Source: an uncultured Clostridia bacterium
GTDB lineage: Bacteria > Bacillota > Clostridia > TANB77 > CAG-465
DNA: 58,802 bases
Direction of reading: 5' to 3'
NCBI GenBank assembly: GCA_944383035.1
Contig: CALWOE010000001.1
Span: forward strand, 1 to 58,802
The position numbers and the translations under genes were made by a program. Below the pieces are notes generated by a model, which did no database searches, was not told where the DNA came from, and saw only the letters and a list, made by a program, of their open reading frames with translations. Below are positions 1,647 through 56,027 of the stretch, piece by piece; the first letter of the stretch is position 1, and each line of letters begins with the position of its first letter.

Positions 1647-4145
1647 TTGTTAGATACAATATTTAAAAAGTTACATATTAAAAGTCCAGAAAAGATTTTA
1701 ACTTATATGTTTTATGGATTATCTGCACTGATTTGTTTAGGCGCAATAACTAAAATGCTTGGTTTTTTGGTTGGAAATATTAGAATAGAAAACAATATTT
1801 CTCCTTACCTATATGCAATATTTATTACTTTCCCTGTATTTGGATTTTGTTTTTTTGCTGCATCTAGTCTAGCAAAAAGTGATTTACACAAAATAAGAAT
1901 GTATATAGTAACATGTGTTCTAATTGCAATTACACTTGGTTCAATGACATGTACTTGGCTAAACAACATAATTTGGTATTTCTTAGAAATGATTCCAAAT
2001 TATTCTAAAGTTTATGCCCTATACCCAGAATTTTTCCCACCAGCAATTAAAACTGCATGTCTTGCAATACCATTTGTTGCTGTATTTAATATATTAGATT
2101 ACTTTCTAATTATCTTAAGAGATGAAGATTTGCCACAAGCAATTGGTGGATTTGCTGGTATTTCTCTTAAGAAAAAAAGTGAAACTGGAGCTTATTCTTG
2201 TGAAAATATTATTTGTAAAGCCAAGGGCTCTGCTGTACCTGTAGTTGTTCCAGAGAAAAAACGTTATGAAGCAACTTTAGTACAAGGTGCTACTGGTACT
2301 GGTAAAACAGCTACTGTACTTTTACCAATGAGTGCATTTGACTTAGAAAAAAAATTCTTCTTTAGAGAATATGCTAAAAAAATTGGTTATTCAATGCTAA
2401 AAAGAGGAATTGCATATATGGGCGGTCCGTTTACAAATGATTATGTAAATAGAAACTTCTCACTAAATTATTTAAGACCTCGTCGTGGTATGGAAGAACA
2501 ATTTATGACTGAAGTAAAACCAATAATGCAATATATAGATAACTCAACTGGCGAAATAACATATAGGAATTTGGGTATTACAGTTCTTGAAAATGACGGA
2601 AACTTTATTTCACAATTCATTGGAGTTGCAAAAAATTTTGATATTGAAGTATTAACAATTGATCCTGCTGCTCCTGAGACTACACTTAGTATTAATCCGT
2701 TTGCAATACCCGATGCATCAAAATGTGCATCTATTATCGGAGATGTTTTAAATGCAATGTATGAAAGTACTGGTGGTGGAAAACCAGGAGATCCATTCTT
2801 TACACAAGTAACAATGGATGCTTTCCAGAACTTATCTATTTTACTAAAAGAAATGTATCCTATTTTGCACAATGGAGAAATGGCAAGTTTAGAAAATATG
2901 CTAGAACTTTTATATAATTTTGATGCTGTTGAAGAAATGACAGAAGAAATGAAAAAAATTCCAGAGTTAGAACAAAAATATAAATTACTTATTAAATACT
3001 TTGAAAAGAATTTCTATAAGCCATCACTTAATATAAATGGATTTGAAATTCCAGGAACTCGTGGTAGTGGTAGAAAAGATACAGAAAAATTCTTGTATGG
3101 TGCTATTACACAACTTAATAACTTAATAAGACATCCTGGACTTAAAGCAGCACTTTGTGGAAAAGAAAATGTTATTGATTTTGATAAAGCTTTAAAAGAA
3201 GGTAAAGTAATAACTGCATGTTCTAGAAAAGGTGAACTTGGTATTTTACAAGCTAAAGCTTTTGGTATGTTCTTTATACTACAATTCCAAGATGCAGTAC
3301 TTAGAAGACCTGGTAATGAAGAATCAAGAACTCCACACTTTATGTATATAGATGAATTTCCAGAATATATTACCAAAGACATGGAAGTTATGTTTACATT
3401 ATTTAGAAAATATAGATGTGGTGTTACAATAGCAATCCAAAACTTATCACAACTTGAAAAAAGTGGAAAAAGTTATTATAGACAAACAGTTCTTGCAAAT
3501 ACAAAAACTCAAATTATATTTGGAGATACTGTACCAGAAGATAGTAGATATTGGTCTGAAGCATTTGGTAAAGTTAAAAAGCCAGATTATAATAGTAGCT
3601 TTAAAATATCTGATGATGGTAACATTGATAAAACAAGAACTATGAAAATGGAAGATAAATTAAGAGCAAAACCATTTAAAATTACAGATCAAGGATTTGG
3701 AGCAGTATTTTACAAGACAAAAACAGCTAGTGGTAAAACAGTATACGGTCAAGGAAAAACAAGTTTCCTAGATCCAAAATACAAAGAAAAAGCAAATGTT
3801 GCTATGTATAATTTTGAAAAGTATATGATGTCAAAGCCAGAGTCACCATCTATAACAATAAATGATAGTGACAGTTCAACAAATGATGATGCATTATTTG
3901 GTGTAAATACAACTTCAAAATTATCTGAAAAAATGAAAAGAATTGCTGATGAACCAATTATAGGTGTTAATAGCATGACAAATTTAGAACCACCAAAAAT
4001 GGAAACAACTGATAATATCGAACAAAACTTAGATGATTTTGAAATAATATTTGATGATACTGAAAACAAAGCTGAAAATGCAGAAACAGATGGTGGTGCT
4101 ATAACAGAAAATTATGAATCACCTACAATTAAGCATAACAAATAA
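1647..4145 (+). CDS. Membrane-anchored VirD4/TraG/TraD-like (type IV coupling protein-like) P-loop ATPase
   Basis: About 4-5 N-terminal TM helices. Walker A is QGATGTGKTAT and the Walker-B-like motif is HFMYIDEFPEY. The RKYRCGVTIAIQNLSQLEK block is typical of the TraM-recognition/T4CP C-terminal domain. The C-terminal tail is acidic and low-complexity. TTG start is as given in the track, so the start is uncertain. Confidence 0.75.
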   Translation: MLDTIFKKLHIKSPEKILTYMFYGLSALICLGAITKMLGFLVGNIRIENNISPYLYAIFITFPVFGFCFFAASSLAKSDLHKIRMYIVTCVLIAITLGSMTCTWLNNIIWYFLEMIPNYSKVYALYPEFFPPAIKTACLAIPFVAVFNILDYFLIILRDEDLPQAIGGFAGISLKKKSETGAYSCENIICKAKGSAVPVVVPEKKRYEATLVQGATGTGKTATVLLPMSAFDLEKKFFFREYAKKIGYSMLKRGIAYMGGPFTNDYVNRNFSLNYLRPRRGMEEQFMTEVKPIMQYIDNSTGEITYRNLGITVLENDGNFISQFIGVAKNFDIEVLTIDPAAPETTLSINPFAIPDASKCASIIGDVLNAMYESTGGGKPGDPFFTQVTMDAFQNLSILLKEMYPILHNGEMASLENMLELLYNFDAVEEMTEEMKKIPELEQKYKLLIKYFEKNFYKPSLNINGFEIPGTRGSGRKDTEKFLYGAITQLNNLIRHPGLKAALCGKENVIDFDKALKEGKVITACSRKGELGILQAKAFGMFFILQFQDAVLRRPGNEESRTPHFMYIDEFPEYITKDMEVMFTLFRKYRCGVTIAIQNLSQLEKSGKSYYRQTVLANTKTQIIFGDTVPEDSRYWSEAFGKVKKPDYNSSFKISDDGNIDKTRTMKMEDKLRAKPFKITDQGFGAVFYKTKTASGKTVYGQGKTSFLDPKYKEKANVAMYNFEKYMMSKPESPSITINDSDSSTNDDALFGVNTTSKLSEKMKRIADEPIIGVNSMTNLEPPKMETTDNIEQNLDDFEIIFDDTENKAENAETDGGAITENYESPTIKHNK

Positions 4146-7835: not shown

Positions 7836-9083
7836 TTATGCAACTAACATTTTTACTCTTTCATCTCTATTTAAATATAAATTTGAAGTATTTATTATTG
7901 CTATAATAACAAGTAAAATAGCAAATAATGGTTGATATATAAATACTGCTTTAGTAGTAAAAGCAACAGTTAAAAATATTAAGATAAATATTAACTTTAT
8001 AATTGTAGATTTTGTATCATATCTTCTTCTTAAGAAAAATGATAATAATTCTATTAAAACTATATAAACAAAAAGTATCATATAATAAGTAGTTGACGTA
8101 CTCAAAAACATATTTGAGAAATTAGTTATAGATGAAATATTAATATTACTTATTATAATTTTTAAGTTTGAGTTTAAATTTATAATACTATCAAATATTT
8201 GCATATTATAAAATGAGTTTATATATTTTATACCATTTACTAAACCAAAATATACTAATATAGCAAAAAAAGCTATTATTACTATACTAACATATAATTT
8301 ATTAATATTTATTCTTTCAATTTTATATAAATCTTCTCTTTTTTCCTGAGTTAATTTTGACATCATTTTTTTTGGAAAATTAATATGTGTATTATCTAGA
8401 TTAAATGTAATAAATATACTAAATAACATAAGAATAATATATACATAAAAATTAATTCCAAATAAAACTGAAAATCCTATTAATACCCCAAGTAATACTG
8501 ATAAAATCACATATTTTTTTGTTCTTAAGCCACGTTGTTTTAATTCATCAATTAAAACTTGTAATACAAATAATGCAGCAAAAAAAACTAACATTAATAA
8601 TTTAGAATTTATAAAGTATGTTTTATCTAATATAACATTTGGTAAAGTTGTAGCACCAAACATAGCAAGAACTGACAACATATCACTCTTAGATATATTA
8701 AATATAATTTTCTTTACAAATATACATATAAAATAGTTAATAATTAAAGAAAATACAATAAATTTAATTGAAGCGTTATCTAAAATATTTCTCATACTAA
8801 TATAAGATGCAATTAAATTTACTATTGTAATATAAATATATCTATATATAAGTGAACTACTTCTTTGTACTTTCATCCTATATAATTTTTCTTTTATATA
8901 CATATATATTAATACTAATAATATTAAAACTATAACGTAGCCTACTTTTATAAGATTTGAAGTCACAGAATTTGTGACTCCAAACCCATTTTTTATTACT
9001 CCTATATTTAAATAAATTAAAAACAATGTAAATATCACAAACACTGCTACTATTAAACTACGTGAAATTTTACTTTTTAACAT
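7836..9083 (-). CDS. Polytopic integral membrane protein, function unknown
   Basis: 415 aa and at least 10 hydrophobic segments. It lies 8 nt upstream of dnaG and downstream of a sugar nucleotidyltransferase gene. I recognise no family motif. Confidence 0.65.
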   Translation of the reverse strand: MLKSKISRSLIVAVFVIFTLFLIYLNIGVIKNGFGVTNSVTSNLIKVGYVIVLILLVLIYMYIKEKLYRMKVQRSSSLIYRYIYITIVNLIASYISMRNILDNASIKFIVFSLIINYFICIFVKKIIFNISKSDMLSVLAMFGATTLPNVILDKTYFINSKLLMLVFFAALFVLQVLIDELKQRGLRTKKYVILSVLLGVLIGFSVLFGINFYVYIILMLFSIFITFNLDNTHINFPKKMMSKLTQEKREDLYKIERININKLYVSIVIIAFFAILVYFGLVNGIKYINSFYNMQIFDSIINLNSNLKIIISNINISSITNFSNMFLSTSTTYYMILFVYIVLIELLSFFLRRRYDTKSTIIKLIFILIFLTVAFTTKAVFIYQPLFAILLVIIAIINTSNLYLNRDERVKMLVA

Positions 9084-18274: not shown

Positions 18275-19517
18275 ATGTTAAAAATTTGTTACAATATTTG
18301 TTGTGGCATCGATGTTCATAAGAAAATGTTAGTTGCTACTATTGCTACTACAAATGAACGCAAAGTTACCACATATCAAACCAAACAATTTTCTACTTTT
18401 ACTAAAGATATTAAGAAACTTAAGCAATGGCTTATTGATAATAACTGTAAAGATGTCTGTATGGAATCCACTGGTAAGTATTGGATTCCTATTTTTAACA
18501 TTTTAGAGGATTCTTGTAATATTACCATTACTCATCCTAAATATGTTAAAGCAATTCAGCGGTAAAAAAACTGATACTAAAGACTCTGTTTGGATTACGG
18601 ATATTTTTAAACATGGTCTTGTTGAAGGTAGTTTTATGCCTCCACTTGCTATCAGACAACTTCGTGATTTAATGCGTTATCGTTTTAAACTTGTTAATTG
18701 CAAAAGTTCTGAAAAGAATAGATTTCAAAATTCTTTAACTGTTTCTAATATTATGATTTCTAATATTCTTACAGATACTTTTGGTAAAACTTCTAAATCA
18801 ATTTTAGAATTAATACTATCTAAAGAAGATAATGTTTCTATGGAAGAAATTAAACCTCTCCTTAGAAAAAATCTTAAATCATCTCCTCAAGAAATTTTAG
18901 ACTCTGTTGAGGGGAATCTTACTCATGAACAAAATTCTAAAATGAAAGTTTGTCTTAACCATTACGATAATATTCTTGATTGCATTAATCAAATTGAACA
19001 GGCTATATTACCATTAATTCAGCCTTTTCAAAATGAAATTAATTTGATTTTAACTGTACCAGGTGTGAAAGATATTTCTGCTATCACTATACTTTCTGAG
19101 ATTGGAGCTGATATGTCTGTATTTAAAGATGCTGAACATCTTTGCTCTTGGGCCGGTCTCACTCCCCAATGTAATGAAAGTGCTGGTAAAAAGAAATCTG
19201 TTCATATTAGTAGAGCTGGCATCTATTTAAAACCTTTACTTATTCAATGTGCTAACAATGCAATTCGTGATAAAAAATGTCCTTATTTTAAATTAAGATA
19301 TGATGCTATCAAAAAACGTAGAGGTCATAAACGTGCAATTATTGCAATTGCTAGAATGTTACTTACTTGCATCTATCATATGCTTTCTAAAAATGAACCA
19401 TTTAATCACCAAATTTATGAGCAGTTATCTCAAAAAAATTTCAAATCTAAAGATAAAAAACTAAATATCAATAATGCTATTAAGTTTTTAGAATCTCAAG
19501 GCTACAAAGTTAGTTAA
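18275..19517 (+). pseudogene. IS110-family DEDD recombinase/transposase, interrupted by a frameshift
   Basis: The N-terminal part (CGIDVHKKML, CMESTGKYW) stops at 18563-18565. The C-terminal Transposase_20-like part (GKKTDTKDSVWITDIF ... SWAGLTPQCNESAGKK) continues in another reading frame. The shift maps to 18557-18560 (ATT CAG C GGT). Confidence 0.85.
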
Positions 19518-21717: not shown

Positions 21718-23034
21718 CTACTTATCTAAAACATTTTCTTTAAAGTCTTTTATATCTGATATAGCTATTTGTGATAACATTGAATATTTTTGTTTTTTAT
21801 CTTTTATTTTTTTATCAAGTGGTTTTAATATTCCAAAATTTGCATTCATTGGTTGAAAATTTTTACTTTCTGTTGATATATATTTACTTAAACTTCCAAG
21901 CATTGTTGTATCTGGAAAAGTTATTTTTTTATTCTTAAGCCTTGCTACTATACTATATGCTACCATCATACCTGATGCTGCAGATTCTACATATCCTTCT
22001 ACTCCTGATATTTGACCTGCAAAATATATATTATTATTACTTTTTAAACAAAAGTTATTATCAAGTAATTTACCACCATTTATATAACTATTTTTATGCA
22101 TTACTCCATATCTTACAAATGATGCATTTTCAAGACCAGGTATCATACTAAATACTCTTTTTTGTTCTCCAAATTTTAAACTTGTTTGAAATCCAACTAA
22201 ATTATATAACGTTTTATTTTCATTTTCAGCTCTTAATTGTACAACGGCATAATTTTTCTCTCCTGTTTTAGGATTATCTAACCCTACTGGTTTTAATGGT
22301 CCAAAAAGTAATGTATTTTCTCCTCTTTTTGCCATTTCTTCAATTGGCATACATCCTTCAAATAGTACTAATTTATCAAAATCGTGCCTTGGAGCACTCT
22401 CAGCATTTACAAGACTTTTATAAAAAGCTAAATACTGTTCTTTATTCATTGGTAAATTTAGATAATCTCCGCCTAAATCTCCATATCTATCCATGCTATA
22501 TGCTATATTCATATCTATACTATCTGCTTCTACTATTGGTGCTGCTGCATCATAAAAATATAATCCTTCATTACCAATTAATTTCATTATATTGTCTAGT
22601 AAATTGCTACTTGTAAGTGGTCCTGTTGCAACAACTGTAATACCATCAAGCTTTGATAGGTCATCTATTTGTTCATATATTATTTCAATATTTTTATCAT
22701 TTTTTATTTCATTTGTTATTATATCAGAAAATTTATCTCTATCAACTGCAAGTGCTTGTCCTGCAGGTATTTTTGACATATATGCAGCTTTTATAAACAA
22801 ACTATCTAAAATTTCCATTTCTTTTTTTAGTAACCCACAAGCATTAGTTAAAAGTTCAGATTTTAAAGAGTTACTACAAACAAGTTCAGCAAAATTATTA
22901 GATTTATGTGCTTCTGATTTATATTTAGGTTTCATTTCATAAAGTCTAACTTTAATATTATTTTTAGATAATATATGTGCGCATTCGCACCCAGCAAGTC
23001 CTGCACCAATTATATTAATTCTTTTATCTTCCAC
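21718..23034 (-). CDS. trmFO: Methylenetetrahydrofolate-tRNA-(uracil54-C5)-methyltransferase
   Basis: FAD motif INIIGAGLAGCECAH, 438 aa, GTG start behind a GGAGG RBS. It has the classical position next to topA. Confidence 0.92.
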   Translation of the reverse strand: MEDKRINIIGAGLAGCECAHILSKNNIKVRLYEMKPKYKSEAHKSNNFAELVCSNSLKSELLTNACGLLKKEMEILDSLFIKAAYMSKIPAGQALAVDRDKFSDIITNEIKNDKNIEIIYEQIDDLSKLDGITVVATGPLTSSNLLDNIMKLIGNEGLYFYDAAAPIVEADSIDMNIAYSMDRYGDLGGDYLNLPMNKEQYLAFYKSLVNAESAPRHDFDKLVLFEGCMPIEEMAKRGENTLLFGPLKPVGLDNPKTGEKNYAVVQLRAENENKTLYNLVGFQTSLKFGEQKRVFSMIPGLENASFVRYGVMHKNSYINGGKLLDNNFCLKSNNNIYFAGQISGVEGYVESAASGMMVAYSIVARLKNKKITFPDTTMLGSLSKYISTESKNFQPMNANFGILKPLDKKIKDKKQKYSMLSQIAISDIKDFKENVLDK

Positions 23035-55288: not shown

Positions 55289-55317
55289 ATTATATATTAT
55301 ATTACAACTTTAGTCAA
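55289..55317 (-). promoter_or_regulatory. Promoter of the S41 peptidase gene
   Basis: Minus strand TTGACT, 17-nt spacer, TATAAT. Confidence 0.55.
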
Positions 55318-55330
55318 TATATCACTAAAC

Positions 55331-55365
55331 AAAAAGAAAAAGCCTTGAAATAAATCAAAGCTTTT
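55331..55365 (-). terminator. Terminator closing the tRNA-like RNA unit
   Basis: Minus strand AAAGCTTTGA-TTTATT-TCAAGGCTTT (10-bp stem, one mismatch) followed by a T-rich tract (TTCTTTTT). Confidence 0.7.
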
Positions 55366-55374
55366 CTGAAGGGA

Positions 55375-55482
55375 TGAGAGTAATTGGAGTCGAACCAATT
55401 ATTTAAATTAAAAAATTTCGTGGAAATGATGGTCAATTAAGCTTTGTTTTCAAAAAGAATTTAAATATAACCGTATACTCTC
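55375..55482 (-). ncRNA. tRNA-like RNA 1 (108 nt): acceptor stem plus T-arm, no D-stem, anticodon arm replaced by a 10-bp helix and a 48-nt insert
   Basis: The minus strand reads GAGAGTA-TACGGTTA-TATTTAAATT-[48 nt]-AATTTAAATA-ATTGG-TTCGACT-CCAAT-TACTCTC-A. The 7-bp acceptor is perfect. The T-arm is canonical (5-bp stem, TTCGACT loop). GG is present in the D-region. No CCA is encoded. Confidence 0.5.
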
Positions 55483-55490
55483 AAGACAAA

Positions 55491-55628
55491 TGGAGAAAGT
55501 AGTTGGGATTGAACCAACATTTTAGACTTTAATGACATCTACATAGAACGGGGTACTATCGTGGCAAAATTTGTTGTATACATCATTTTATTTAAGTCTA
55601 GTGTACTACCAGTTTGTACTATACTTTC
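55491..55628 (-). ncRNA. tRNA-like RNA 2 (138 nt): acceptor, D-arm, T-arm and encoded CCA, with the anticodon loop replaced by a 64-nt insert
   Basis: The minus strand reads GAAAGTA-TA-GTAC-AAACTGGTA-GTAC-AC-TAGACTT-[64 nt]-AAGTCTA-AAAT-GTTGG-TTCAATC-CCAAC-TACTTTC-T-CCA. The acceptor, D-stem and T-stem are all perfect. U8, G18G19 and the T54-C56 equivalents are present. Confidence 0.55.
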
Positions 55629-55686
55629 AAAATAACTAAAACCAATTTTACTAATAAAAAAATTATAAATATATTAATGTAGATAT

Positions 55687-55715
55687 ATATTATCATAATT
55701 AAATATAAAAGTCAA
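55687..55715 (-). promoter_or_regulatory. Candidate promoter of the tRNA-like RNA unit
   Basis: Minus strand TTGACT, 17-nt spacer, TAATAT, about 55 nt upstream of the 5' acceptor strand of tRNA-like RNA 2. It is divergent from the rpsU promoter. Confidence 0.45.
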
Positions 55716-55754
55716 GTTTTTTTATGTAATTTTCAACTTTTATATATGACAGTC

Positions 55755-55783: not shown

Positions 55784-55853
55784 TTAATAGTAAAATTTGA
55801 AATACTTATGAAAATGAATTTAGGTATTTCCCACTGGAAGGAGGGAAAATAGA

Positions 55854-56027
55854 ATGCCAGGTATAAAAATAAAAGATAACGAAAGTTTAGATAATGCATT
55901 AGCAAGATTCAAAAAACAATGCGCTAAATATGGTGTTCTTGCTGAAATACGTAAAAGAGAACATTATGAAAAGCCTAGTGTAAAAAGAAAGAAAAAATCA
56001 GAAGCTGCAAGGAAAAGAAAACATTAA
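55854..56027 (+). CDS. rpsU: 30S ribosomal protein S21
   Basis: It is not in the ORF track because it is under 60 aa. [57 protein letters not shown], with an AAGGAGG RBS. Confidence 0.93.

Follow-up and report, generated by a model that had tools for sequence, protein, structure and literature searches.

The spacer between rpsU and the gene of an S41 peptidase (ctpB homologue) in an uncultured gut Clostridia species raises the question of what two tandem elements are that resemble tRNAs at the acceptor/T-arm end and carry inserts of 64 nt and 48 nt in place of a 7-nt anticodon loop. This description was given by the first-pass annotation and agrees with our analysis of the window, by which we mean the whole 58.8-kb stretch of DNA. 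Judged from the sequence, the two elements appear to be tRNA-derived RNA genes in a small putative transcription unit of their own which matched no described RNA family. Neither of them is a chance product, and the sequence provides solid grounds for their origin from tRNA. The earlier statement that they could not be assigned to a known RNA family needs to be qualified, since RNA 2 matches the general tRNA model with 43.8 bits; apart from this no Rfam family was matched.

Both elements were found at the annotated positions and 8 nt apart, and every sequence element listed for them is present (Table 1). The putative promoter consists of a -35 element TTGACT (55715-55710), a 17-nt spacer with an upstream TG (55695-55694) and a -10 element TAATAT (55692-55687). 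Since this AT-rich DNA contains many promoter-like matches (20 found, 11.6 expected), the match is by itself weak evidence. The terminator stem-loop (55366-55337) is followed by a run of T and weakly resembled a terminator-type ctRNA model in the Rfam search. Both signals of the promoter-to-terminator unit proposed earlier are thus present. Among the 15 independent assemblies that span the unit there is a single SNP on the promoter and leader side (55629-55720) and none in the terminator; an additional partial assembly (L042) carries C>A at 55336. We infer promoter, processing and RNA ends from the sequence. The neighbourhood comprises rpsU, rluB, rluD, hsp33, the S41 peptidase gene, veg and sipL, and the peptidase gene has its own near-consensus promoter (TTGACT-17-TATAAT, 55317-55289). 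The G+C content is 25% in the genome, 27-33% in the two RNAs and 20% in their flanks.

Table 1. Positions of the features of the RNA unit within the window.
Feature	Positions	Strand	Basis
Putative sigma-A promoter of the RNA unit	55687..55715	-	sequence match
5' leader, about 50 nt from the inferred transcription start to G1 of RNA 2	55629..55686	-	inferred from promoter position
RNA 2, 138 nt	55491..55628	-	tRNA model match and fold
Long arm of RNA 2, at the position of the anticodon arm	55524..55601	-	fold and sequence
Shared motif, copy in RNA 2, UUGCCACGAUA, apical region of the long arm	55557..55567	-	pattern scan
8-nt spacer UUUGUCUU between RNA 2 and RNA 1	55483..55490	-	sequence
RNA 1, 108 nt to discriminator A73	55375..55482	-	sequence
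Shared motif, copy in RNA 1, UUUCCACGAAA	55416..55426	-	pattern scan and fold
Intrinsic terminator, 12-bp stem, 6-nt loop, then CUUUUUGUUU	55327..55366	-	sequence

RNA 2 starts with a 7-bp acceptor stem (GAAAGUA/UACUUUC, 55628-22 paired with 55501-495), followed by U8 and the D-arm GUAC-AAACUGGUA-GUAC (55619-603), and ends with the T-arm GUUGG-UUCAAUC-CCAAC (55518-502), the discriminator U73 and an encoded CCA (55493-491). The nucleotides required for the tertiary pairs are all in place (U8, A14, G18G19, A21, U54-U55-C56, A58, G53-C61 and A15/U48). The score on the Rfam tRNA model RF00005 exceeds the gathering score of 29 bits, with a 64-nt insertion being placed in the anticodon loop. At the position of the anticodon arm a 7-bp helix (UAGACUU/AAGUCUA) closes the insert. 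Part of the insert pairs imperfectly with itself (AUGAUGUA.UACA / UGUA.GAUGUCAU), and its terminal region comprises about 31 nt. The result is a long irregular hairpin without a 5-bp anticodon stem closing a 7-nt loop. A helix as good as the 7-bp helix occurs in 24% of shuffled sequences, so it is not unusual by itself. The minimum-energy fold consists of the tRNA core and the long arm (-23.8 kcal/mol), and the folding z-scores of the two RNAs are modest (-1.6 and -1.9).

RNA 1 has an equally perfect 7-bp acceptor stem (GAGAGUA/UACUCUC, 55482-476 paired with 55382-376) and a T-arm AUUGG-UUCGACU-CCAAU (55399-383), while its A73 is followed by UCC instead of CCA. The acceptor stem leads into the connector UACGGUUA, and both a D-stem and a variable region are missing. 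A 10-bp repeat (UAUUUAAAUU/AAUUUAAAUA) closes the 48-nt insert. According to ViennaRNA, however, the pairing GGUUA(11-15)/UGACC(47-51) has a probability of 0.89 compared to 0.03 for the 10-bp A-U helix, the energies of the two competing folds being -16.2 and -14.3 kcal/mol, respectively. The modelled interior fold therefore appears ambiguous, although the 10-bp repeat is nonetheless unusual (1.5% of shuffles). On the tRNA model RNA 1 reached 12 bits (E = 5.7), and no other Rfam family was matched. In the Rfam check suggested earlier RNA 2 thus scored above the gathering score of the tRNA model and RNA 1 below it, with no match to tmRNA, Y RNA or group I intron models for either.

Could RNA 2 be a tRNA gene with a short intervening sequence in its anticodon loop, the removal of which would give a decoding tRNA with the anticodon UAA? 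Such a removal could proceed via a new small self-splicing element or via cleavage and RtcB-type ligation. The Rfam alignment positions the 64-nt insertion after loop position 37, the loop reading CUUAAA. ARAGORN, which did not call any tRNA and thus missed RNA 2 in its default mode, reports RNA 2 in intron mode as tRNA-Leu(taa), giving it a variable arm of 24 nt and placing a 42-nt intron at 37/38. This would fit tRNA-Leu(UAA) being the classic host of bacterial tRNA introns, and an essential tRNA with a catalytic intron could account for the near-invariance of the insert among strains. However, with 42-64 nt the insert is far too small for a group I core, and even at E <= 10 neither Intron_gpI nor any other intron or ribozyme family was matched. 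By inspection no bulge-helix-bulge motif can be drawn either, as the helix UAGACUU(A)AAU/AUU(A)AAGUCUA is continuous with a single A.A mismatch; the first-pass annotation had argued against both intron types. Furthermore, folding RNA 2 as a type II tRNA-Leu costs 7.4 kcal/mol relative to the long arm, and even after in silico splicing another fold is better. RNA 2 also carries U73 where bacterial tRNA-Leu has the discriminator A73. The Leu call is also non-specific, because 344 different deletions in RNA 2 yield ARAGORN tRNA calls with arbitrary, varied anticodons. In RNA 1, the paralogue of the same architecture and with the same motif, none of about 3,000 single deletions (15-60 nt) gives an ARAGORN tRNA. 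No splicing endonuclease or ligase was seen among the ORFs scanned in the window. Taking these points together, it seems unlikely that RNA 2 is converted to a decoding tRNA. The new intron type considered earlier is thus retained as a candidate role for RNA 2 and fails for RNA 1. There is a slim chance that the insert of RNA 2, and that of RNA 1 in its ancestral state, represents a new kind of short intervening sequence in bacterial tRNAs (42-64 nt at 37/38), the removal of which would yield a functional tRNA and would proceed neither by group I self-splicing nor by cleavage through a bulge-helix-bulge endonuclease. In that case the insert would be nearly invariant because of the demands of catalysis or recognition, and excision of the inserts would define a new type of bacterial tRNA intron.

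In both RNAs the acceptor/T-arm minihelix is intact and ends either in CCA or in a form to which CCA could be added, as would be expected of aminoacylated tRNA mimics, either a minimal tmRNA-like RNA for ribosome rescue or a donor of aminoacyl groups away from the decoding site (for example in cell-wall or lipid aminoacylation). One fold of RNA 1 reproduces the layout of the tRNA-like domain of tmRNA. RNA 2 shares its discriminator U73 with Cys and Gly tRNAs, and its 3' half resembles tRNA-Cys genes of phage clusters. The tmRNA-like layout noticed earlier for RNA 1 is nevertheless weakened, as it depends on the disfavoured 10-bp helix. The absence of G3:U70 in both RNAs (G3-C70 in RNA 1, A3-U70 in RNA 2) had been recognised correctly and speaks against a tmRNA-like role, as does the lack of any tmRNA family match at E <= 10. 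The tmRNA mode of ARAGORN found nothing by default and at a lowered threshold made a spurious permuted call ('Tag not identified'). A plausible tag frame is lacking, and the sole ORF of the RNA 2 insert is shifted by a one-base deletion in one assembly (L041). The synthetases for Cys and Gly require anticodon bases, which are absent from both RNAs. An aminoacylated mimic of either kind is therefore improbable.

The two sites stand out within the window. A scan for T-arms (5-bp stem, G53-C61, UUCRA loop) returned only these two on either strand, both with a 7/7 acceptor stem, whereas 296 kb of syntenic DNA from 39 relatives contained one match lacking an acceptor and no combination of T-arm and acceptor. 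From the sequence comparison RNA 1 and RNA 2 are paralogues whose differences preserve the tRNA-like structure. Their acceptor stems are alike at 6/7 pairs and their T-stems at 4/5, and none of the 12 acceptor and T-stem pairs is broken in either copy. Of the 31 core positions 7 differ. Four belong to the compensated pairs 3:70 (A-U to G-C) and 49:65 (G-C to A-U), and the others are position 57, a purine in both copies, and the freely variable T-loop positions 59 and 60. Random sets of seven substitutions retain all core constraints with a frequency of only ~2e-4 (P about 2e-4). The compensated differences could, however, predate the inserts if the copies stem from two different functional tRNA genes.

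The hexamer CCACGA, which had been reported to be shared by the inserts, is present and extends to UUNCCACGANA. In the window the latter (pattern TTNCCACGANA) is confined to the inserts, with one copy in each against 0.06 occurrences expected, and its copy in RNA 1 can form a small hairpin (UUUC-CAC-GAAA). The 8-nt complement between the inserts, in contrast, is within chance, since we estimate ~0.2 such matches for AT-rich inserts of this size. Neither a small self-cleaving ribozyme nor a riboswitch aptamer was detected in the inserts, with no Rfam match at E <= 10. A C/D-box or K-turn was considered and rejected, the sole signal being an antisense snoR25 hit (23 bits, gathering score 50) that we regard as chance. 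A coding role of the RNA 2 insert was likewise dropped due to the L041 deletion, which frameshifts its 15-codon ORF.

For the distribution of the unit, 29 syntenic loci were obtained from species-representative genomes via the S41 peptidase and a further 10 via an identical S21 protein. All 39 loci of these relatives show the same gene order and a spacer of ~220-260 nt without the RNAs. No tRNA, no nhmmer sequence match and no T-arm with acceptor was found in them, and 16 of these loci compared with Rfam gave nothing at gathering thresholds. Since the spacer of the relatives lacks the RNAs, the unit is best regarded as an insertion specific to one species-level lineage. Proteins more than 55% identical to the peptidase were restricted to variants of the same species (98% or more) in the protein database. 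BLAST against phages and plasmids gave no homologue, and pattern scans of viral contigs gave only chance matches within coding sequence or ordinary tRNAs. A metagenome scan with the consensus of both T-arm and 3' acceptor returned 84 matches, none of them relevant, in coding sequences, a mitochondrial tRNA and tRNA-Cys and tRNA-Met genes of phage clusters. None of these searches thus revealed a homologue outside the species, so any comparison for covariation is confined to the two paralogues. Full-text searches of the literature gave no description of this architecture. A functional link to the S41 peptidase or the pseudouridine synthases was rejected, as the synteny is conserved in relatives without the RNAs.

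The position of the unit exactly between two divergent promoters, within a spacer that is low in diversity throughout, might indicate that it regulates the peptidase or rpsU gene in cis or locally rather than producing free RNAs. We consider this very improbable, because a strong terminator separates the unit from the peptidase gene with its own promoter, the unit is antisense to nothing in rpsU, and the relatives retain both genes and promoters without it.

All of the 15 independent assemblies, which represent 10 peptidase haplotypes, carry the RNA pair. The 254 nt of the pair contain one SNP, at the variable D-loop position 17, compared to 14 SNPs in the 182-nt spacer between the peptidase gene and veg (p = 3.4e-5). 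The inserts alone have no SNP in 112 nt (p = 0.0013). RNA 1 and the long arm of RNA 2 are both free of SNPs, the latter showing a 1-nt deletion in a CCCC run (55553) in L041 only. About 8% of the synonymous sites of the adjacent gene vary. Inside the peptidase gene diversity returns over a distance of ~40 nt, as would not be expected after a broad selective sweep. Part of the signal may nevertheless come from neighbouring regulatory constraint or linkage, since the entire rpsU-peptidase spacer is low in diversity. The strain comparison thus indicates, at the level of the sequence, that both RNAs including their inserts are under selection within the species.

These data also bear on the question whether the pair is a non-functional relic, i.e. 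two acquired or duplicated tRNA genes that were broken by small indels and are now transcribed or silent without any role. The missing anticodon loops, the lost D-stem of RNA 1 and the occurrence in one species-level lineage only would be in line with decay. A short direct repeat TTAAA flanks the insert of RNA 2, as might for example be left by a MITE-like insertion, and the literature connects irregular tRNA-like polycistrons with mobile elements (PMC7609411). However, a relic is difficult to reconcile with a single SNP in the pair against 7-8% variation at neighbouring neutral sites, with intact stems in both copies whose changes are compensated, and with the persistence of G/C-rich patches in such an AT-rich genome. 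Moreover, the inserts have no convincing terminal inverted repeats. Neither has a second copy in the window, which makes a MITE less likely. We therefore consider decay without function quite unlikely.

In our opinion the locus most plausibly encodes two paralogous, tRNA-derived RNAs that do not decode and that are maintained by selection in gut Clostridia of a single species-level lineage, which is AT-rich and forms spores, a reading which we favour tentatively and rate at somewhat below an even chance. The sigma-A-type promoter would give rise to a precursor of ~350 nt ending at the intrinsic terminator. The enzymes of tRNA maturation would be expected to cut both elements from it, because the acceptor/T-arm stacks as well as the D-arm and the tertiary nucleotides of RNA 2 are intact. 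If the RNA is processed like a tRNA, RNase P would cleave at G1 and remove the leader, trimming of RNA 2 would stop at its encoded CCA, and RNA 1, in which A73 is followed by U, would presumably depend on RNase Z and the CCA-adding enzyme. This processing scheme follows established rules of tRNA processing and the precedent of YrlA in M. smegmatis, the tRNA-like domain of which has a 7-bp acceptor stem and undergoes cleavage by RNase P and CCA addition (PMC4201824). The products would retain two parts of a tRNA, the elbow and the acceptor/T-arm limb, with a long irregular hairpin in place of the anticodon limb, and judging from sequence and folding they could not read codons because they lack a 7-nt anticodon loop as transcribed. 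The tRNA-like module may then serve processing, stability and docking, while the insert, which displays UUNCCACGANA and equals the core in conservation, may bind a specific partner, either a protein or an RNA. Of the roles that the first-pass annotation had in mind, a decoy (its possible targets being RNase P, the CCA-adding enzyme, a T-box, EF-Tu or a synthetase) and a novel intron, the sequence singles out none.

Known bacterial tRNA mimics are few (tmRNA, YrlA-type Y RNAs and tRNA-Other), and each of them has revealed a new pathway. The architecture described here differs from all of these in combining a normally oriented tRNA core, processable ends, a conserved cargo hairpin for the anticodon arm and a tandem duplication; its importance is limited for now by the apparent restriction to a single uncultured species-level lineage. 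The tRNA-like domain of tmRNA (SsrA), including reduced forms without the mRNA part, likewise has a 7-bp acceptor stem, a CCA end, a canonical T-arm and a long helix replacing the anticodon arm. RNA 1 in its less probable fold (0.03 against 0.89) additionally shares the stemless, GG-containing D-loop and the long helix with a directly adjacent T-arm and no variable region. In contrast to tmRNA, which is a single universal gene, the present RNAs are two tandem, lineage-specific paralogues of 108-138 nt that lack G3:U70, a tag frame, pseudoknots and a match to any tmRNA model.

YrlA-type Y RNAs combine a module mimicking D-arm, T-arm and acceptor with a long helix at the position of the anticodon stem, as is the case here (PMC4201824). 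Their topology is, however, circularly permuted: the RNA ends lie within the Ro-binding stem, whereas the RNAs described here end in the acceptor stem and have a closed long helix. The motif GNCGAAN0-1G is absent, the sequences here reading CACGAA(A) and CACGAU(A), no Y RNA signature was matched in Rfam, and neither an rsr (Ro60) gene nearby nor a TROVE-domain protein among the 20 larger ORFs scanned in the window was found.

With the tRNA-Leu(UAA) genes that contain group I introns RNA 2 shares the insertion in the anticodon loop, the CUUAAA loop and the ARAGORN call. The catalytic core of group I introns (P3-P9) typically comprises 200 nt or more, whereas the insert of RNA 2 has 42-64 nt and no such core, is located at 37/38 instead of 34/35 and is accompanied by U73; RNA 1 cannot be restored to a tRNA at all. 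The archaeal and eukaryotic bulge-helix-bulge introns are short, intron-sized inserts at the canonical position 37/38 as well, but their motif of two 3-nt bulges separated by a 4-bp helix cannot form here, and we know of no splicing endonuclease in bacteria.

The pseudo-tRNA 'tRNA-Other' of Bacillus cereus is tRNA-derived and non-translational and may have another role (PMC3399842), and together with the allo-tRNA-like polycistrons (PMC7609411) it provides examples of non-translational tRNA derivatives, some of them in tandem irregular units. These RNAs keep the cloverleaf with its anticodon arm, which is replaced by a conserved insert of 48-64 nt in RNA 1 and RNA 2, and share no sequence similarity with them. 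The same architecture is found in engineered 'tRNA scaffold' RNAs, synthetic constructs in which a cargo RNA replaces the anticodon arm and the tRNA core confers processing and stability. To our knowledge no natural, selected counterpart of the tRNA scaffold has been described; if expressed and processed as predicted, the two RNAs would represent such a counterpart and would offer a handle on the factor that reads UUNCCACGANA.

All sequence elements listed in the first-pass annotation for the minus strand at positions 55331-55715 are present, including a promoter-like site and an intrinsic terminator on either side of two tandem tRNA-shaped RNAs that carry long inserts instead of an anticodon arm, and the observation is real. 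RNA 2 has a 64-nt insert closed by a 7-bp helix (UAGACUU/AAGUCUA). Its 7-bp acceptor stem and its D-arm, which includes G18G19, are both perfect; U8, a variable region of 4 nt, a canonical T-arm, U73 and the encoded CCA are also in place, and ViennaRNA reproduced the fold originally drawn (-23.8 kcal/mol). In RNA 1 both acceptor stem and T-arm are perfect, an 8-nt connector contains GG, the 48-nt insert is closed by a 10-bp repeat, and A73 is followed by UCC at the 3' end. The 10-bp helix proposed for RNA 1 was only partly borne out: the repeat exists and was found in just 1.5% of shuffles, but the ViennaRNA ensemble prefers a GGUUA/UGACC pairing (0.89) to the 10-bp A-U helix (0.03). The 8-nt complement suggested between the two inserts lies within chance (approximately 0.2 expected by our estimate).

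The RNA 2 insert is bordered by a direct repeat of UUAAA, and the arms of the RNA 1 helix also form an 8-nt direct repeat since AUUUAAAU is palindromic. These repeats could be target-site duplications of an old insertion or simply parts of the helices.

Positions of the RNA pair, its flanking signals and further features of the window
Feature	Position	Strand	Remarks
Promoter-like site	55715-55687	minus	extended -10; brackets the pair upstream
RNA 2	55628-55491	minus	138 nt
RNA 1	55482-55375	minus	108 nt; 8 nt downstream of RNA 2
Intrinsic terminator	55366-55327	minus	strong; brackets the pair downstream
UUAAA repeats, RNA 2	55600-55590 / 55534-55524	minus	GACUUAAAU ... CAUUAAAGUC
S41 peptidase promoter	55289-55317	minus	TTGACT-17-TATAAT
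rpsU leader hairpin	55798-55846	plus	GAAAUACUUA/UAAGUAUUUC
rpsU	55854-56027	plus	57 aa
GIDA-family ORF	21718-23034	minus	438 aa
IS110-family transposase	18543-19517	plus	DEDD_Tnp_IS110, Transposase_20
TraG/VirD4-type ORF	1647-4145	plus	832 aa; coupling-protein domains

RNA 2 scored 43.8 bits against the Rfam tRNA model (gathering score 29), with 64 nt aligned as an insertion following position 37 of the anticodon loop. RNA 1 reached only 12 bits with this model and matched no Rfam family; apart from the tRNA hit of RNA 2, the earlier statement of no known RNA family is supported. ARAGORN in default mode reported nothing in the whole window. A structural scan of both strands of the 58.8-kb window for a 5-bp T-stem closed by G53-C61 with a UUCRA loop detected RNA 1 and RNA 2 as the only sites. 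At each, a 3' acceptor strand comes next and pairs perfectly over 7 bp with an upstream segment; the identical scan over 296 kb of DNA from relatives gave one match, which had no acceptor.

Judged by their sequences, the two RNAs are paralogues of tRNA origin without an anticodon loop. Their acceptor stems agree at six of seven pairs and their T-stems at four of five. They differ at seven positions of the 31-nt acceptor/T-arm core: both partners of pairs 3:70 (A-U to G-C) and 49:65 (G-C to A-U), each fully compensated, T-loop positions 59 and 60, and purine 57 (A/G). U54, U55, C56 and A58 are identical. Only ~2e-4 of random seven-substitution sets satisfy the same constraints. If, however, the copies arose from two separate tRNA genes, the compensated differences could be older than the inserts. 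The CCACGA noted earlier in both inserts belongs to UUNCCACGANA, which is present in each and otherwise absent from the window (0.06 expected).

TrmFO is the folate-dependent tRNA U54 methyltransferase. The GIDA-family ORF has the size of TrmFO and, from family and length, probably encodes it; if so, the organism would modify T-loops of the type kept in both RNAs.

ARAGORN in intron mode did read RNA 2 as a tRNA-Leu(UAA), assigning 42 nt to an intron at 37/38 and 24 nt to the variable arm. However, the long-arm fold is more stable than this one by 7.4 kcal/mol, the Leu fold is still not the best after in silico splicing, and U73 differs from the A73 discriminator of bacterial tRNA-Leu. Furthermore, 344 different single deletions of RNA 2 gave tRNA calls with arbitrary anticodons, and the Leu call is therefore not specific. 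As previously stated, the inserts are too short for group I introns (that of RNA 2 is several-fold shorter than the core and matches no intron or ribozyme model). A bulge-helix-bulge motif cannot be drawn either. It seems unlikely that RNA 2 is a spliced tRNA. None of ~3,000 single deletions of RNA 1 was accepted by ARAGORN. Since both paralogues share architecture and motif, splicing accounts for the pair less well than a non-decoding role does.

Within the species the pair is carried by all fifteen independent metagenome assemblies sampled (ten peptidase haplotypes). Across the 254 nt that cover both RNAs, variation amounts to a SNP at 55612 (C>A), which falls on D-loop position 17 of RNA 2, a freely variable site, and the loss of one base from a CCCC run in a single assembly. 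In the 182 nt of the peptidase-veg spacer there are 14 SNPs (Fisher p = 3.4e-5), although low diversity also extends over the remainder of the rpsU-peptidase spacer, which limits this evidence for selection. A second downstream spacer of 184 nt contains 10 SNPs, and approximately 8% of synonymous sites in the peptidase gene are variable. The inserts alone, 112 nt in total, contain no SNP (p = 0.0013). Diversity returns ~40 nt inside the peptidase gene, making a broad sweep unlikely. We consider it quite unlikely that this nearly invariant pair is a non-functional relic.

The window is an ordinary chromosomal region of a spore-forming, AT-rich Clostridia bacterium (25% G+C), with rpoD, dnaG, topA, the putative trmFO, groEL, proS, recA, spoIIP and spoVAD and the local order hsp33-rluD-rluB-rpsU<>S41 peptidase-veg-sipL. 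This order is kept in 39 syntenic loci of relatives (peptidase 45-55%, S21 100% identical), where the rpsU-peptidase gap is only ~220-260 nt and contains two divergent promoters and nothing tRNA-like. Therefore, the RNA unit is a lineage-specific insertion of ~330 nt. In a database of 5.8 billion proteins the peptidase has same-species variants (98% or more), followed by a gap down to 55%. Nothing similar to the unit was detected in phage and plasmid DNA collections, in five pattern scans of viral contigs or in one metagenome scan with the consensus of both T-arm/acceptor sequences. In the latter, the ordinary tRNAs closest to the RNA 2 3' half were phage-cluster tRNA-Cys genes with U73. A role as local regulatory element of the adjoining genes seems highly improbable.

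Several neighbouring features were also observed. The S21 protein is identical to that at the compared loci (L001, L030-L039), and 5,177 indexed blocks of the assembly collection contain exactly this sequence. The rpsU leader forms an invariant 9-10-bp hairpin with a hypervariable 16-30-nt loop directly upstream of the ribosome-binding site GGAGGGAGGG; it is kept in these relatives, matches no Rfam family and possibly acts as an autoregulatory leader for S21. The ctpB-like S41 peptidase has its own near-consensus promoter (11/12) directly after the RNA-unit terminator, and in relatives the corresponding box, TAGTCAA(C/T), can be recognised. The IS110-family transposase and the TraG/VirD4-type ORF are signs of mobile DNA, neither being linked to the RNA unit. 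L139, an IMG/VR viral contig with an 18-tRNA cluster, carries at ~7990-8050 (+) an orphan T-arm and 3' acceptor half (GTTGGTTCAATTCCAACTACTCTCA) directly 3' of a promoter-like TTGACAATTTA...TATAAC, a sequence that recurs ~130 nt further upstream. A 5' half to match it was not found and ARAGORN made no call; a split or half tRNA and the remnant of an attachment site are both conceivable.

We tentatively propose, at somewhat short of even confidence, that the pair represents selected, non-decoding, tRNA-derived RNAs that would share one transcript and be processed by the enzymes of tRNA maturation. Their tRNA-like module may serve processing, stability and docking, and the conserved insert with its CCACGA-containing motif may confer specificity for a putative partner. 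These unusual tRNA-like non-coding RNAs are under selection and so far confined to one uncultured species.

The nearest architectural analogue is the engineered tRNA scaffold. Compared with tmRNA the pair is, as already remarked, far smaller and lacks G3:U70, and neither a tag frame nor a model match was found; a charged tmRNA-like or donor RNA is improbable. In YrlA-type Y RNAs the topology is permuted relative to the pair, whose sequence lacks their GNCGAAN0-1G motif, and no rsr gene lies near the unit. In B. cereus tRNA-Other and the irregular allo-tRNA-like polycistrons the anticodon arm is retained (PMC3399842, PMC7609411). YrlA nevertheless provides a precedent for the processing of a tRNA-like module, as in M. 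smegmatis RNase P cleaves this module, whose acceptor stem has 7 bp, and CCA is added to it (PMC4201824).
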